Shown here: piece after piece, positions 41,794-47,755 of the stretch
Layout: the number at the start of each line of letters is the position of its first letter
Numbering within the stretch: position 1 is the first letter of the stretch
Assembly: GCA_963728405.1 (NCBI GenBank)
Contig: CAVSJV010000017.1
Coordinates: 32,001 to 96,000 of the forward strand
Source of the DNA: Methanomassiliicoccaceae archaeon
GTDB taxonomy: Archaea > Thermoplasmatota > Thermoplasmata > Methanomassiliicoccales > Methanomassiliicoccaceae
Direction: 5' to 3'
Length of the DNA: 64,000 bases
Translations under genes and position numbers: made by a program
The notes under the pieces: model-generated
What the model was told of the DNA's origin: nothing
What the model saw: the letters and a program-made list of their open reading frames with translations, nothing else
Databases searched by the model: none

Positions 41794-42873
41794 TTGTCTG
41801 AAGTGGGCACTACTGCGTGGATAATTTTCATCATCAGCATCTTTGCCTTGCTGGCAATTGATCTTGGGGTCTTCAATCGGAAGGCCCATGTGATCAAGCC
41901 GAGGGAGGCTTTGTTGCAGGTCGCCTTCTTCGTTTCCGCCGGCGTAATATTCAATCTTGGAATATACTTCTGGATAGGCTCTCAGGCAGGGCTGGAGTTC
42001 ACCACCGGCTACATAATGGAGCTGATGCTGAGCGTCGACAATCTGTTCGTCTTCGTTCTGGTCTTCGCCTCCTTCTGCGTGCCGGCAAAGGACCAGCACA
42101 AGATCCTGTTCTTCGGCATCCTGGGCGCCCTCGTATTCAGGATGGCGTTCATCTTCGCTGGGGTCGCCCTAGTGGAATCGTTCGAGTGGGTCCTCTATAT
42201 CTTCGGAGCCTTCCTGATATTCACCGGCATAAAGATGGGCCTTGACAAGGGCGAGGAGACCGTTCACCCCGACCAGAACATCATGGTCCGGTTCTTCCGT
42301 AAGTTCATGAGGATCACCAGCGGCTACGAGGGGGACAAGTTCTTCGTCCGGAAGAAGGACGAACGCGGCAAGCTGCTCCTGTGGGGCACGCCCATGCTCA
42401 TCGCCCTCATCGTGGTGGAGACCACCGACATCATGTTCGCCGTGGACTCCATCCCCGCCATCCTGGGCATCACCACCAACGCATTCATCGTGTTCAGCTC
42501 CAATGCCTTCGCCATCCTCGGCCTGAGGTCGATGTACTTCGCGCTGGCCCACATCATGAACGCGTTCTGCTACCTGAAGTACGGGCTGGCCGGCATCCTA
42601 TCCTTCGTCGGCGCAAAGATGCTGGTCGCCTACTTCGGCATCCACATCGACGTGCTCACGTCGCTGCTGGCCATCGTCGTCATACTGGGCATCGCGATCG
42701 TCGCCTCGCTGATCAAGAACCGGCGCAGCGGCAACACTCCAGGCAAAGAGGAGAAGGCCAAGGAAAGTCCCCTCCTCAGGGAGCTGGAAGGATCCGGGAC
42801 GGCCACCGGCAACGGAGAGGCCTGCCCGGCCCTGAAGGATATCAGGCACACCGAGGAGAAGTACAACAAGTAA
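41794..42873 (+). CDS. TerC/Alx family membrane protein
   Basis: LSVDNLFVF, GALVFR, ETTDIMFAVDSIPA, SNAFAILGLRSMYF. Confidence 0.92.
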   Translation: MSEVGTTAWIIFIISIFALLAIDLGVFNRKAHVIKPREALLQVAFFVSAGVIFNLGIYFWIGSQAGLEFTTGYIMELMLSVDNLFVFVLVFASFCVPAKDQHKILFFGILGALVFRMAFIFAGVALVESFEWVLYIFGAFLIFTGIKMGLDKGEETVHPDQNIMVRFFRKFMRITSGYEGDKFFVRKKDERGKLLLWGTPMLIALIVVETTDIMFAVDSIPAILGITTNAFIVFSSNAFAILGLRSMYFALAHIMNAFCYLKYGLAGILSFVGAKMLVAYFGIHIDVLTSLLAIVVILGIAIVASLIKNRRSGNTPGKEEKAKESPLLRELEGSGTATGNGEACPALKDIRHTEEKYNK

Positions 42874-43359: not shown

Positions 43360-44376
43360 TCACTTGTTGATGCCCAGGGTGCGGTCGGTCTTCTGGATGG
43401 ACCGCATGGCGTCCGGCTCTAGCTTCATCATCGCCCGTATGCAGTCGACGCTCTCGGGGACGACGTCGCTCTCCTGGTGGATACCCTGGTAATAGTACAG
43501 AGTATTGCCGATGACCTTGACCCCGTCCTGCCAGACCACGATCTCCATGAAGTCACCGCGCTCGCGCTTCAGGTCCTTGGCCAGTTCGAGGATCTGAGCG
43601 GTGGTCTTGACCCCGTGCTTGCCGCTGACGAACTTGACCCTCGGAACATTGTCCCAGACCGCCAGAACATCCTGGTCCTTGGCCTTCTTCCTCAGGTCGG
43701 CCACGATGCAGTGGACATGCATGAGGGTGGTCGGGGCCTTCACCGCCATGGTGGTGATGTTGAGCCAGGGCATGATGGTCTGGACGTCCGGTCCGTGGTG
43801 GGTCGGAAGCTTCAACGACGGCTCGAGCGCGTTGAGGGCCGAGCCCTTTAGGTCCGATGGGTCTGCGCCCCTCCTCACGATGGTGGCAGAGACCCTCTCC
43901 AGCCCGAAGACCTTGTCCAGAGGGTAGAGCGTTCTCACCAGTCCGGTGGTGTTGCATGAGACAACGCGGACGAACTGCGCCCCCCAGGCCTCGTTATAAT
44001 TGGCAAAAGCGTTGAACGATATGCCTGCTAGACCATGGTCCTCTCCTCCCTGGAAGATCGCCTTCACTCCGGCCTTCTCGTACAGAACCTTGTAATCCTC
44101 GGCCACCCCGCCGGGAGTGGCATCCACCATGATGTCGACATTCTTCAGCAGGTCGTCGATGGTGCCCTCGACCTTGATGCCGTCCTTCTCGAAGGCCGTC
44201 ACCTGTTCGGTGTTGGCCGTGTAAAGAGGAAAACCCTCCATCCCCGCCAACCTAGCCTCATAGGATGGTCTGGTCTTGGTGACCCCCACGATCTCCATGT
44301 CGTCCTGGGCCTTGATCGCGCAGGCGACCCTCTTGCCGATGGTACCGTAACCGTTGATGCCAACTCTGACCTTCAT
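43360..44376 (-). CDS. gap: Archaeal type II glyceraldehyde-3-phosphate dehydrogenase
   Basis: GYGTIGKRVA, IFQGGE, VVSCNTTGL, HHGPD, IHQES. Confidence 0.95.
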   Translation of the reverse strand: MKVRVGINGYGTIGKRVACAIKAQDDMEIVGVTKTRPSYEARLAGMEGFPLYTANTEQVTAFEKDGIKVEGTIDDLLKNVDIMVDATPGGVAEDYKVLYEKAGVKAIFQGGEDHGLAGISFNAFANYNEAWGAQFVRVVSCNTTGLVRTLYPLDKVFGLERVSATIVRRGADPSDLKGSALNALEPSLKLPTHHGPDVQTIMPWLNITTMAVKAPTTLMHVHCIVADLRKKAKDQDVLAVWDNVPRVKFVSGKHGVKTTAQILELAKDLKRERGDFMEIVVWQDGVKVIGNTLYYYQGIHQESDVVPESVDCIRAMMKLEPDAMRSIQKTDRTLGINK

Positions 44377-44569
44377 GCTGTGGTCTCCGTCGAACCTGTC
44401 AATGTCATTGATTCATTATGTGCCTTGTGGTTAGCTACCACAGGGTCACGTGGACGGGATGCCGAAGTGACATAAAGAGATGTAGGACGTTGTCCTCGGT
44501 TCCAGCATTATGAGCGGAAAGATATCACTGCCACATGATAACACGTGTAATGTCAGGACCTCGCAATAC

Positions 44570-44577
44570 TTTATATA
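44570..44577 (+). promoter_or_regulatory. TATA box of the ilv operon
   Basis: TTTATATA about 25 nt before the leader ORF ATG, implying a nearly leaderless transcript. Confidence 0.65.
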
Positions 44578-44601
44578 CATTCTCTATTATTTGGGAGACC
44601 A

Positions 44602-44673
44602 ATGCCTAGCGGTGCCACTAAAAGCTCCATCGTTTCTTCCGTTTTGAGCGTAGTGGTAGTATTGATTAGGTAG
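44602..44673 (+). CDS. Putative ilv operon leader peptide MPSGATKSSIVSSVLSVVVVLIR
   Basis: 23 codons; 10 of the last 14 residues are Ile/Val/Leu. Sits between the TATA box and ilvB and is followed by a hairpin. Confidence 0.7.
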   Translation: MPSGATKSSIVSSVLSVVVVLIR

Positions 44674-44699
44674 AGGCATCCAGCCGTTTGGGTGTCCTC
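44673..44699 (+). promoter_or_regulatory. Leader hairpin (putative attenuator switch)
   Basis: GAGGCATCCAG-CCGT-TTGGGTG(T)CCTC: 11 bp including two G-U pairs and one bulge, starting at the leader stop codon. Confidence 0.55.
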
Positions 44700-44721
44700 A
44701 CACATTGTAAAGGGTGATTAG

Positions 44722-46392
44722 TTGAGAGGTTCTAAAGCAGTTCTCACATTACTGGAAAATGAAGGGGTCGAGGTCATGTTCGGGTACCCGGGGGGTTCTA
44801 CCCTCACGCTGTACGATGATCTGCTGACCTCAGATATACGGCACGTGCTGGTCCGCCACGAACAGTGCGCGGCCCACATGGCCGATGGATATGCCCGAGC
44901 GACCGGCAAGATCGGGGTGTGCACCTCGACCTCCGGACCGGGCTCCACCAACCTGGTGACCGGGGTCGCCACCGCCTATGTCGATTCATCGCCCATGCTC
45001 GTCCTCACTGGACAGGTCACCACCAGCGCGATAGGCAACCAGGCTTTCCAGGAGGCTGACTCGTTCTCGCTGATGATGCCCATCACCAAGCATAACTTCC
45101 GTGTTCTTACTCCCGGCGAGATCCCAGAGGCCATCAAGAGGGGTGTGGCCATAGCCAACAGCGGACGGAAGGGGCCGGTCCACATCGACCTACCATCGGA
45201 CGTCCAGAAGGCCGAGGTCCCCGAGTCGGAGATGGTCAAGGAATTCCCGTCCCCACCATCCCTGGAGGACTTCTCCAATCTCCCCGAGGCCATCAAGGTG
45301 CTCAAGGGCGCTGAGAGGCCGCTGCTCCTGGTGGGCGGAGGGGTCATCTGGGCCAACGCCAGCCAGGAGGTTGTCAGACTGGCAGAGATGCTCATGGCGC
45401 CGGTCACCACGACCATCATGGCCAAGGGGGTCATCCCCGAGAACCATCCGCTCTCCCTGGGAATCATCGGCATGCATGGAAAGGAGTCGGCCCGCAAGGC
45501 GTTCCTGGAAGCGGACGTCATCCTAGCGGTCGGCACGCGCTTCTCCGACCGCAGTTCCGGCGCGCAATCCGAGCTGCCCATGTCCACGAAGATCATTCAC
45601 GTCGACATCGATCCCGGTGAAGCGGGCAAGTCCGCCCGCACCCAAGTGCGCATGGTCGGTGACGCCAAGAAGGCGCTACAGCTCATCATAGAGGGCCTTT
45701 ACGCTACCAAAGGCGAGACCGCCTGGTCCCTACGCATCAAGGAGATTCTGAAGAACTGCGACTGTGACATTGATATCTCTTCGTCGCCGGTCCTTCCGCA
45801 GTTCGCCATCTGCGAGCTGAACCGCTCCCTGCCGAAGGATGCTATCGTCTGCACCGAGGTCGGGCAGAATCAGATGTGGGCGGCCCACTTCTTCAAGGCC
45901 CGCTACCCGCGGCAGTTCATCACCTCCGGCGGGTTCGGCACGATGGGATTCGGATTCCCTGCATCGCTCGGGGCTAAGACCGCCTTCCCCAACAAGGCGG
46001 TCATCGATATCGCCGGCGACGGCAGCATCCAGATGGTCTCCCATGAGTTCGCCACGGCCGTCTCCGAGAACCTGCCGGTCGTGGTCTGCGTCTTCAACAA
46101 TGGATGGCTCGGGATGGTCAAGCAGTGGCAGAAGCTGTTCAACCAGTCCCGGTACAGCGGCACAGAACTGCGCAACAACCCAGACTTCGTCAAGCTCGCC
46201 CAAGCCTACGGCGCGGACGGGCTGCATGTCGAGCGCTCCTCGGAGCTGAGAGAAGCGCTACATACCGGCCTCAATGCAGGAGTGCCGTTCCTTTTAGATA
46301 TCCACATGGACCCCGAGGAGGACGTCCTCCCGATGATCCCCCCGGGCGCAAACCCCAACACAGTCATAAGAGGTAGGTGCACATGGAAGTGA
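44722..46392 (+). CDS. ilvB: Acetolactate synthase large subunit
   Basis: FGYPGG, RHEQ, TSGPG, FQE, GTMGFG, GDGS...NN ThDP motif. TTG start after GGGTGA. Confidence 0.95.
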   Translation: MRGSKAVLTLLENEGVEVMFGYPGGSTLTLYDDLLTSDIRHVLVRHEQCAAHMADGYARATGKIGVCTSTSGPGSTNLVTGVATAYVDSSPMLVLTGQVTTSAIGNQAFQEADSFSLMMPITKHNFRVLTPGEIPEAIKRGVAIANSGRKGPVHIDLPSDVQKAEVPESEMVKEFPSPPSLEDFSNLPEAIKVLKGAERPLLLVGGGVIWANASQEVVRLAEMLMAPVTTTIMAKGVIPENHPLSLGIIGMHGKESARKAFLEADVILAVGTRFSDRSSGAQSELPMSTKIIHVDIDPGEAGKSARTQVRMVGDAKKALQLIIEGLYATKGETAWSLRIKEILKNCDCDIDISSSPVLPQFAICELNRSLPKDAIVCTEVGQNQMWAAHFFKARYPRQFITSGGFGTMGFGFPASLGAKTAFPNKAVIDIAGDGSIQMVSHEFATAVSENLPVVVCVFNNGWLGMVKQWQKLFNQSRYSGTELRNNPDFVKLAQAYGADGLHVERSSELREALHTGLNAGVPFLLDIHMDPEEDVLPMIPPGANPNTVIRGRCTWK

Positions 46393-46751
46393 TAAAGATA
46401 GTCGGAAACGACTCACAGGGCCTGTTCCAGAGGGTCCTGGTGGAGCTCGGAAGAAGGAAGATAAACATTGAGAAGTCGTTCATGGCTCGGAACAAGGGTC
46501 TGATCACCATCATCGTGGAAGCGAACACCGGCAACATGAACGGACGACTACTGCACGCCCTCATGGCGCTACACGATGTGAACACGGCAGAATATCTCAC
46601 CGAGGACTACTTCTGCTTCTGGGAATCGTCCCCCAGCAAGGGCTCCGATTTCATCATCGCCTGTGGTGCCGATAAGGATGCTGGCGAGATGCGCCGGACG
46701 GCCGAACAATGCTTATACAGGGGCACAGATAACAGCGAGAAAAACTCGTAG
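46383..46751 (+). CDS. Divergent ACT-domain acetolactate synthase regulatory subunit
   Basis: Lies between ilvB and ilvC; ACT-like GLFQRVLVELGRRKINIE. Confidence 0.6.
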   Translation: MEVIKIVGNDSQGLFQRVLVELGRRKINIEKSFMARNKGLITIIVEANTGNMNGRLLHALMALHDVNTAEYLTEDYFCFWESSPSKGSDFIIACGADKDAGEMRRTAEQCLYRGTDNSEKNS

Positions 46752-46762
46752 GAGCCGGTAAC

Positions 46763-47755
46763 ATGGTTACTAAGATCTATCACGATTCCGACGCTGACTT
46801 GGACATATTGAAGGGCAAGAAGATCGCCGTCATCGGCTATGGGAACCAGGGCCGCGCCCAGGCGCTGTGCCTGCACGACTCCGGCCTCAACGTTACCGTA
46901 GGCGCTCGGAAAGGCGGGGAATCCTGGGACATGGCTCAGGCCGATGGCCTGAAGGTCGCCGAGATCCCCGAGGCGGTCAAGGGCGCGGACGTGGTCATGA
47001 TCCTGCTGCCGGACGAGGTCCAGCCCCGGGTGTACAAGGAGCAGATCGCTCCCCACCTGAAGGAAGGCGCTGCCCTGGAGTTCGCTCATGGGTTCGCTAT
47101 CACTTTCAAGCTCATCGCCCCGCCCAAGGACACCGACGTTATCATGGTCGCTCCCAAGTCCCCCGGCCGCATGGTTCGGCAGACCTATCTGGAAGGGTTC
47201 GGGGTGCCGTCGCTCATAGCCGTGGAAAAGGATGCGTCCGGCAAGGCCAAGAAGATCGCCCTGGCATTGGCCAAGGGACTGGGCTCTACCAAGGCCGGCG
47301 TGCTGGAGACCGACTTCCGTGAGGAGGCGACCTCCGATCTGTTCGGCGAGCAGGCCGTGCTGTGCGGCGGAGTGACCGCGCTGATCGAGGCCGGGTTCGA
47401 TACCCTGATTAAGGCAGGCTACAAGCCAGAGATCGCCTATTTCGAGGTACTGCACGAGCTGAAGCTCATCGTCGACCTCATCCAGGCCGGCGGCATGATG
47501 CACATGTGGGACTCCGTTTCCAACACCGCCGAGTACGGCGGGCTGACCCGCCGGGACATGGTCATCAACGAGGACTCCAAGAAGGCCATGAAGAAGATCC
47601 TCGACGATATCAACTCCGGCAAGTTCGCCGAGGAGTGGACCAAGGAGTGGACCGTCGACCTGGCCAACATGAAGAAGCTCGAGAAGGAGGAGTCGGAGAA
47701 GCAGGTCGAGAAGGTCGGCAAGGAGATCCGCTGCCTCTTCGAGCGCAAGTGCTAA
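46763..47755 (+). CDS. ilvC: Ketol-acid reductoisomerase
   Basis: GYGNQG, LLPDE, AHGF, APKSPG, DLFGEQ, SNTAEYG. Confidence 0.96.
   Translation: MVTKIYHDSDADLDILKGKKIAVIGYGNQGRAQALCLHDSGLNVTVGARKGGESWDMAQADGLKVAEIPEAVKGADVVMILLPDEVQPRVYKEQIAPHLKEGAALEFAHGFAITFKLIAPPKDTDVIMVAPKSPGRMVRQTYLEGFGVPSLIAVEKDASGKAKKIALALAKGLGSTKAGVLETDFREEATSDLFGEQAVLCGGVTALIEAGFDTLIKAGYKPEIAYFEVLHELKLIVDLIQAGGMMHMWDSVSNTAEYGGLTRRDMVINEDSKKAMKKILDDINSGKFAEEWTKEWTVDLANMKKLEKEESEKQVEKVGKEIRCLFERKC

Follow-up and report, generated by a model that had tools for sequence, protein, structure and literature searches.

A putative ribosome-read branched-chain amino acid leader upstream of ilvB in Methanomassiliicoccales

Leader-peptide attenuation, known from bacteria, is the textbook example of how the coupling of transcription and translation can control genes. 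Archaea, to our knowledge, have no hairpin-plus-U terminators of the bacterial kind; an archaeal leader that contains a sensing open reading frame (ORF) but no terminator therefore raises a testable question: is the ribosome position read by the polymerase, by a termination factor, or by a ribosome? A leader of this type precedes ilvB, the gene for the large subunit of acetolactate synthase (ALS), in a 64,000-nucleotide stretch of DNA from a member of the Methanomassiliicoccaceae (GenBank assembly GCA_963728405.1, contig CAVSJV010000017.1, positions 32,001 to 96,000 of the forward strand; this whole stretch is called the window in the following). According to the original prediction, which was made from the letters alone, a short ORF with a run of valine codons is followed by a hairpin at its stop codon, and one arm of this hairpin, once freed, occludes the start region of ilvB. 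The comparative analysis described here indicates that the element very probably is a leader for branched-chain amino acids (BCAA; Val, Leu, and Ile) that is read by the ribosome. To the complete chain of events, which is a ribosome-sensed Val/Leu/Ile attenuator that has no classical terminator and includes a co-transcriptional, factor-dependent read-out, we assign a probability of roughly 0.4.

The leader ORF (44602..44673, + strand; MPSGATKSSIVSSVLSVVVVLIR) comprises 23 codons, terminates with TAG at 44671-73, and ends with the residues V-V-V-V-L-I-R. Five of the six codons in the putative regulatory run GTA GTG GTA GTA TTG ATT (44650..44667, + strand; V V V V L I) are rare: according to the codon usage of the same genome, which was drawn from a crude set of 1283 long ORFs, GTA and GTG make up 0.10 and 0.36 of Val, TTG 0.11 of Leu, and ATT 0.10 of Ile codons. 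A TATA-like box of the archaeal promoter type (TTTATATA, 44570..44577, + strand) begins 32 nt 5' of the leader ATG. The position of this box is conserved: relative to the leader start codon, the best TATA-like octamer starts at -32 or -31 in 43 of 49 relatives and between -32 and -30 in 46 of them. Because the usual distance between an archaeal TATA box and the transcript start would place the latter at, or a few nucleotides from, the leader ATG, the leader ORF itself is most likely leaderless, and the messenger containing ilvB, a small ORF, and ilvC should begin at the leader start codon. Intact ORFs of 20-26 codons with at least five Ile, Leu, or Val among the last nine residues occur in 50 of 50 relatives, which bears out the predicted Val-rich leader ORF. 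They start with ATG (19) or GTG (31) and stop with TAG (32), TGA (16), or TAA (2). The C-terminal run differs by family (VVVVLI, VVIII, GIII, VIVVL, VVVVI, TVIVVL) but is always of the Ile/Leu/Val type, and the N-terminal residues of the peptide are not conserved. A run that varies in sequence but not in kind, preceded by a free N-terminus, appears to be the signature of regulatory codons and not of a protein or a pure RNA element. The locus thus contains the short leader ORF with a cognate codon run in front of an operon that is characteristic of classical attenuators and also, with the transcription start predicted above, the leaderless small ORF (sORF) with a codon run as first cistron that is characteristic of the mycobacterial cysteine leaders. 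Read-through of the leader TAG, an idea prompted by the use of pyrrolysine in the order Methanomassiliicoccales, was dismissed: the distance between leader and ilvB is not divisible by three in the relatives, and 297 of the 1283 long ORFs in this genome terminate with TAG.

Folding of individual sequences yields two constant helices, P1 and P2. P1 is formed between leader codons 2-7, which include a conserved CCAC, and the Val/Leu/Ile codons, which include GUGG. In the minimum free energy fold of the window sequence, its 5' strand spans 44603..44620 (+ strand, codons 1-7, core CCACU at 44615-19) and its 3' strand 44651..44672 (+ strand), so that the latter overlaps both the Val/Leu/Ile codons and the stop codon. 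The apical part of P1 is a pyrimidine-rich single strand of 15-25 nt in the folds of the individual sequences. The core pairs, G44614..U44619 with A44652..U44657, are formed in 81-85% of the cells in alignments of the relatives, and in 4-5 of the 6 pairs both partners have changed. For 20 of the 30 orthologs, the duplex between the 5' and 3' halves of P1 is better than 95% of its mononucleotide shuffles, with a mean z of -2.4, and in the raw sequences of relatives the 5' strand co-varies with the BCAA codons (AACAAC:GUUGUU, GACCAAC:GUUGUC, ACGAC:GUCGU). P2 (44673..44699, + strand; 5' arm 44673-83, loop 44684-87, 3' arm 44688-99) consists of 11 pairs including two G-U, has one bulged U (44695), and reaches -13.0 kcal/mol when folded alone. 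Its first base, G44673, is the last base of the leader stop codon; the hairpin starts 0-5 nt after the leader stop in the relatives, where the GAGG:CCUC at its base is nearly invariant. In the window sequence alone (44668-44735), P2 is not beyond chance (z = -0.35; 67 of 200 shuffles fold as well). Across relatives, 90.2% of its cells are paired in a MAFFT alignment of the 30 orthologs and 93.2% in a model-fitted alignment of 55 distinct sequences, with both-side changes in 6 of 10 pairs. This comparison indicates that P2 is real, and the hairpin of the original prediction, 11 bp long and without a U-tract, is thereby upheld. A third helix, P0, is weak. It is formed by a conserved CAUUG after P2 (44703..44707, + strand), which can pair with CAAUG at 44600-04. 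In P0, 76-80% of the cells pair, the start codon retains its pairs with CAU, the second pair is lost in most cases, and only 3-4 pairs hold; the duplex test was significant in 6 of 30 orthologs.

Taken together, the three helices have 86.4% of cells paired in the MAFFT alignment of 30 sequences, compared to 36-48% with slid partners, and 11 of 21 pairs are changed on both sides. The corresponding values in the model-fitted alignment of 56 sequences (55 distinct), which leans towards the structure of the model it was fitted to, are 85.5%, 37-52%, and 13 of 21, with 93.2% for P2, 81.2% for the P1 core, and 75.6% for P0. In both alignments, 0 of 500 shuffles reach the observed value. RNAalifold, when applied to the 30-sequence MAFFT alignment, returned 6 pairs only, at the base of P2, and on subsets of the alignment either P2 with a doubtful helix between a U-tract and GAGAGG, or little. 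Column-based methods likely miss P1 because its outer register shifts between genera, and duplex tests with a hand-set structure were used in place of an RNAalifold consensus. A cmscan of 44300-44900 against Rfam, with E up to 10, gave no leader or riboswitch match and a chance hit to CRISPR-DR28 on the minus strand (E = 8.5). In addition, both arms of P2 resemble a ribosome-binding sequence. Its 5' arm pairs with the 3' end of the 16S ribosomal RNA of the same genome at -10.9 kcal/mol, as strongly as the true Shine-Dalgarno (SD) sequence of ilvB (-11.2), and the SD pentamer GGGUG is present both in the P2 3' arm (44690-94) and in the ilvB SD (44712-16).

The element appears to be confined to a narrow phylogenetic range, within which it is frequent. 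An ilvB gene was present in 41 of 41 related genomes. TATA box, short ORF, and hairpin at the stop of this ORF were found together at 30 of 30 ilvB loci of relatives (26 flagged by an automatic filter, the other four confirmed by eye) and at 20 of 20 loci from f3, the most divergent family that carries the element (family labels were assigned by the search tool). A leader pattern specifying 21 bases was found in 19 of about 185,000 species genomes. Sixteen of these are titled Methanomassiliicocc-, two 'Methanobacteriota archaeon', and one 'Methanomicrobia archaeon'. A covariance model of the leader, R1, has one match in the genome of the window and matches in 73 of 151 genomes of the order Methanomassiliicoccales, with one copy per genome and always before ilvB; under strict filters it matched 0 of 133 sampled genomes from other orders of the class. 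Within Methanomassiliicoccales, the families differ: there are matches in 22/23 genomes of f1, with 1/1 in f2, 37/47 in f3, 4/4 in f4, 0/1 in f5, 8/10 in f6, and 0/64 in f7. Family f7 has ilvB relatives of only about 51-53% identity, and in nine of its upstream regions that were read no leader was seen. A scan of the window's own genome for a TATA box, an ORF of 10-40 codons, a hairpin at its stop, and a following long ORF gave 16 candidates, and the ilvB leader is the only one with an amino acid run.

Two further leader types follow the same plan. In families f2, f4, and f6, an ALS paralog of 53-54% identity has its own leaderless, Leu/Val-rich leader at 6 of 6 loci (type 2; L084-L089 in genomes G024, G028, G032, G035, G036, and G040). 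These leaders have 21-26 codons, peptide ends such as LLVSVQVLVV and QLLVVLVVR, and a GC-rich hairpin of variable sequence that starts 2-3 nt after the stop. They are unrelated in sequence to the leader in the window, and R1 does not match them. The ilvB genes of two other families of the class (58-60% identity) are preceded by a leader of 26-30 codons at 9 of 9 loci (type 3; L112-L120), with endings such as ILVVLGVLVDLRILRP and a hairpin of -23.5 to -28.3 kcal/mol that includes the stop codon and the last two sense codons. For complementarity of the P1 type, p is about 0.06 or lower at 7 of these 9; P0 is absent from type 3, as judged by sequence reading. All three types have a leaderless ORF rich in BCAA codons, and P1 covers these codons; a strong hairpin marks the stop, a spacer of 20-35 nt contains the SD, and there is no U-tract. 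An Ile/Leu/Val run was not seen at two f24 loci, one f31 locus, and four f13 loci, the last with small ORFs only. Upstream of the f13 ilvB genes (L122-L125), ORFs of 24-27 codons begin about 25 nt past a TATA box and have endings such as ALLHFIIA and DSIIH; they may be degenerate or differently tuned leaders.

This conservation might reflect a function other than that of an amino acid gauge. The ORF would then be a by-product of a structured RNA whose binding partner is a protein or a ligand, or would code for a small hydrophobic protein. Strong nucleotide conservation within a family, which includes synonymous sites (GUAGUGGUAGUNUUGAUUAGGUAGAGGCAUCC), and the nearly invariant base of P2 are consistent with this idea, and the ilvB leader of Streptomyces coelicolor offers a precedent in the available text of PMC1262725. 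A pure RNA element would hardly explain why the 3' strand of P1 differs between families and yet always consists of in-frame Ile/Leu/Val codons, nor why length, start, and stop of the ORF are kept in 50 of 50 relatives. The unconserved N-terminal residues do not suggest a functional protein, and the three unrelated leader sequences on one plan, together with the lack of an Rfam match for the leader in the window, argue further for a gauge. A role outside amino acid sensing is thus improbable.

If the leader senses amino acids, its read-out must be sought downstream of the codon run. The GC-rich hairpin with a directly adjoining U-tract that marks the intrinsic terminator of classical attenuators was not found here. 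There is no run of T after 44699, a terminator scan of the + strand between 44300 and 44900 gave no terminator-like site, and no consistent T-run was seen 3' of P2 in the relatives. P2 lacks a U-tract and thus does not appear to be a classical terminator. The original prediction had suggested that control is translational and not terminator-based. The second half of this statement agrees with our data; the first is doubtful, as the anti-SD switch on which it was built found no support and P1, as discussed below, argues against steady-state translational control.

In this proposed switch, a ribosome that reaches the leader stop would free the P2 3' arm CCUCACAC, which then pairs with the SD and start of ilvB and blocks initiation, and a stall would keep the SD open. 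Its general premise is sound: to reach the stop, a ribosome has to open the hairpin, which remains intact when the ribosome stalls on the Val codons. The letters also are where they were said to be: besides the leader TAG and the hairpin from G44673 to C44699, these are CCTCACAC at 44696-44703, GTG at 44714-16 within GGGTGA (44712-17), and TGAG at 44723-26 over the TTG start at 44722. They are complementary as claimed, and the 3' arm shares CCUC with the end of the anti-SD in the 16S ribosomal RNA of this genome. The resulting helix is very weak, however. CUCA:UGAG plus CAC:GUG amount to -2.4 kcal/mol, compared to -13.0 for P2, and even in a fold from 44684 on, where the 5' arm of P2 is absent, the probability of each of these pairs is at most 0.0055. 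The best duplex between the 3' arm with its tail and the ilvB start region has -5.9 kcal/mol in the window (z = +1.3), and this complementarity is at chance level in the orthologs, of which 2 of 30 exceed 95% of their shuffles (mean z -0.34). Higher stability was seen in families with an SD of the GGAGG type (L020, L021, L024, L027, L029), with a duplex of about -12 kcal/mol and z from -1.2 to -2.2.

Folds with masked ribosome footprints, which represent equilibrium and ignore kinetics and proteins, gave no better agreement. The energy needed to open the SD and start of ilvB in the window is 7.6 kcal/mol for the free leader, 7.0 with a stalled ribosome, and 6.3 with a ribosome at the stop. These values run opposite to the switch model, since the lowest is the one at the stop. 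Among the 30 orthologs, opening is harder at the stop than in the free state in 11 and easier in 9; relative to the stalled state it is harder in 9 and easier in 14. The loci L017-L019 agree with the model in that their opening energy rises from 3-4 to about 7 kcal/mol in the stop state, and here the hairpin base (GAGG:CCUC to AAGG:CCUU) and codon 2 of ilvB are both changed. This apparent co-change is not covariation, because seven other relatives (L012, L021, L023, L024, L028, L029, L030) changed the ilvB side alone. Covariation thus extends to the hairpin and not to the alternative helix between its arm and the ilvB start region. The hairpin 3' arms of type-2 and type-3 leaders contain no complement to the SD, as judged by sequence reading. 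Finally, a vacant leader would refold P2 and turn ilvB on again, and P1 would limit repeated translation of the leader. Considering the weak helix, the 2 of 30 orthologs, the masked folds, and the missing covariation, the anti-SD switch was rejected and must be regarded as highly improbable.

Other pairings that could connect the leader to ilvB were equally scarce. Duplexes of the P2 3' arm with the 150 nt downstream and of the P1 5' strand with P2 were each significant in 2 of 30 orthologs, and duplexes of the P1 5' strand with downstream sequence in 0 of 30. Together with the 2 of 30 for the P2 3' arm and tail against the ilvB start, these tests give no indication of the mutually exclusive antiterminator and terminator helices of a classical attenuator. 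The P2 5' arm and downstream sequence scored in 7 of 30; this reflects a CAUCC:GGAUG match to the SD that is limited to some genera. Small ORFs between the leader and ilvB were also considered. One is a second mini-ORF that begins in the CAUUG after P2 (UUG-UAA, 44705-10 in the window); comparable ORFs with an end close to the ilvB start were seen in 24 of 30 orthologs, and shuffled spacers would give 14.4. It was discarded because the enrichment is weak, frames and ends vary, and CAUCG variants have no start codon. Initiation within the P2 3' arm, at a GUG or AUG that precedes UCCUC, was likewise discarded; this codon is in the ilvB frame in only 6 of 30 orthologs, and the other ORFs end between -18 and +35.

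Translation of ilvB might still be attenuated by another route. A folded vacant leader, with P0, P1, and P2 beside the SD, or a local hairpin at the ilvB start would lower initiation, and a stalled ribosome would relieve this block. The 3' strand of P0 indeed ends 4 nt before the SD, and codons 7-12 of ilvB itself pair with part of the SD and start region (mean pairing 0.36), which takes 3-12 kcal/mol to open. Such a mechanism would resemble ermC or the leaderless cysteine sORFs of mycobacteria, and bacterial leaderless sORFs without terminators are known, according to the available text of 10.1101/834739. No part of the leader pairs with the ilvB start region at a mean probability above 0.02, however, and significant duplexes were obtained in 1 of 30 orthologs for the BCAA codons against this region, in 0 of 30 for the apical region, and in 0 of 30 for the freed 5' strand against downstream sequence. 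Moreover, the stall masks ease opening of the start in 3 of 30 orthologs and hinder it in 13, again at equilibrium. Translational attenuation of this kind is unlikely, but of the alternatives discussed here it fares best.

A stalled ribosome could also control messenger stability, as in Bacillus, where the ermC mRNA is stabilised by a stalled ribosome. Positioned near the 5' end of the leader, it would shield the messenger from a 5'-to-3' exonuclease or from a cut in the single-stranded loop of P1. This explanation requires no alternative helix, in line with the negative pairing tests, and one stalled or two queued ribosomes would cover the apical 15-25 nt pyrimidine-rich strand. However, the 5' end of a vacant leader would be hidden in P0 and P1, which should protect it as well, and the U-rich loop follows from the Val, Ser, Leu, and Phe codons. 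We thus see a slim chance that stability control is the main function.

The preferred reading is a co-transcriptional attenuator, in which a ribosome would load on the 5' end of the nascent leader RNA and sense the supply of charged tRNA. If Val, Leu, or Ile tRNA is short, it would stall on the 3' strand of P1, so that P1 is open and P2 folded. With good supply, it would run to the stop, unwind P2, and leave. The vacant leader would then collapse into P1 and P2, with the weak P0, and bury its 5' start. With its start buried in P1, the leader would act as a sensor only for the first ribosome, during transcription, and a single round of this kind argues against steady-state translational control. 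Whether P2 is opened or not would be the only consistent difference between the supplied and the starved state in this round. The most speculative step follows: opening of P2 and release of the ribosome would leave naked RNA behind the RNA polymerase and let aCPSF1/FttA, or a nuclease, end the transcript before ilvB, and a stalled ribosome together with a folded P2 would prevent this. A factor-dependent, Rho-like read-out is favored because neither a U-tract nor a competing helix was found. In archaea, termination occurs at poly-U or through aCPSF1/FttA on nascent RNA, and a coupled ribosome is expected to exclude the factor, according to the available parts of PMC8116511 and PMC13681488. That ribosome position or RNA structure gates access of the factor in the leader is suggested by this logic and by the absence of alternatives. 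Provided that the element is a ribosome-read BCAA leader, the odds that it is read out by termination or cleavage and not by translation initiation are even at best, or slightly lower. The more specific proposal of an archaeal ribosome-mediated attenuator, where premature termination dependent on aCPSF1/FttA is gated by the stop-codon hairpin and which was built at least three times on one plan in Thermoplasmata, is tentative and somewhat doubtful.

Several points weigh against this reading. None of the tests performed here gave a sign of stalling, of premature termination, or of an aCPSF1/FttA site. Stalling would also uncouple the ribosome from the polymerase, so that the termination logic rests on P2 being open or closed alone, and P2 should refold very quickly after the ribosome has left. 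In 31 of 50 relatives, the leader would have to be initiated at GTG on a leaderless RNA. Concerning the structure, single-sequence folds are not significant (z -1.66 and -0.35), RNAalifold returned only 6 pairs, and the relatives in the counts are not independent; the lean of the model-fitted alignment and the mononucleotide shuffles of the P1 duplex test have been mentioned. Mutation of candidate regulatory codons in the S. coelicolor ilvB leader had no effect, according to the available text of PMC1262725. Four metatranscriptome runs (each with 0.04 of the words) gave contigs on 44786-45050 only, most below 90% identity, which evidently are conserved ilvB coding pieces from other organisms. 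They leave the leader uncovered and are neutral either way.

The genomic context of the leader agrees with its predicted role. The ilvB gene (44722..46392, + strand) starts with TTG and scores 681.3 bits with TIGR00118, compared to a cutoff of 538.35; in the relatives, the start codon at the same place is TTG, GTG, or ATG. Its SD, GGGUGAU (44712..44718, + strand), pairs with the 16S 3' end encoded on contig C7 of the same genome. An ORF of 124 aa (46377..46751, + strand) overlaps the ilvB stop by 16 nt and lies in the usual position of ilvN, between ilvB and ilvC, and matched 0 NCBIfam families. The ilvC gene for ketol-acid reductoisomerase (46763..47755, + strand) scores 500.6 bits with NF004017 (cutoff 336). 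The divergent upstream neighbor of the leader-ilvB operon encodes an archaeal type II GAPDH. Leader ORF and ilvB share one frame in the window, with another in-frame TAG directly before the TTG start (TAGTTG, 44719-44724); this frame is not kept in the relatives. At 41794-42873 (+ strand), the window also encodes a membrane protein of the TerC/Alx family (TIGR03718, 377.6 bits; the model is named 'R_switched_Alx'), a family that in bacteria often is under riboswitch control.

In full-text literature searches, the text returned contained no description of a leader-peptide attenuator in archaea, and a review on archaeal coupling contains no word beginning with 'attenuat'. The element can thus be considered a well-supported and, as far as found, unpublished archaeal variant of leader-peptide control. 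It marks small ORFs that genome annotation has missed and, being short, sharply defined, present once per genome, and available in many natural variants, it is experimentally accessible.

Among known systems, the enterobacterial BCAA attenuators in the leaders of ilvBN and ilvGMEDA, which belong to the same type as those of trp, leu, and his, are the obvious reference. Like these, the archaeal leader has a short ORF before a biosynthetic operon, a run of codons for the operon's own amino acids near the end of this ORF, and helices that overlap the regulatory codons, and the ribosome position is predicted to set which helices exist. It differs in its archaeal host, the leaderless start, and the lack of a U-tract terminator, of a detectable antiterminator/terminator pair, and of an Rfam match. 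Furthermore, the regulatory codons are located in the 3' strand of the first helix and not in the 5' strand. In Corynebacterium glutamicum, the leader peptide of ilvBNC reportedly is made without a ribosome-binding site, to go by the title of a paper of 2000 by Morbach. The actinobacterial ilvB leaders, as described in the available text of PMC1262725 and PMC11857589, also include a short ORF in front of ilvB(N)C whose Ile/Val/Leu codons overlap with a hairpin. They contain candidate terminators followed by poly-U (available text of PMC1262725), which the archaeal leader lacks, and the promoter of the latter is of the archaeal TATA type. With the polycysteine 'Cys ribulon' of mycobacteria (10.1101/834739, available text), the element shares a leaderless sensory sORF in first position, the absence of a terminator, and, presumably, a stalled ribosome as signal. 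In that system, however, stalling keeps the sORF region from forming a duplex with the ribosome-binding site further downstream, which otherwise would be sequestered (10.1101/834739, available text), whereas in the archaeal leaders no complement to the ilvB start above chance level, and hence no such duplex, was found. The element thus would work like a bacterial leader-peptide attenuator but lacks two defining features of the classical ones, the terminator and the alternative helices. Leader-peptide attenuators that depend on Rho, such as tnaC-tnaA and mgtA/mgtL, may be the closer analogy. They too have no intrinsic terminator, and a ribosome at or near the leader stop would gate the access of a factor. 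In the archaeal leader, this factor would be aCPSF1/FttA, and the signal would be a starvation stall within the ORF and not a ligand-induced arrest at the stop. If true, factor-dependent reading of the BCAA leader would be the archaeal counterpart of Rho-dependent leader-peptide control.

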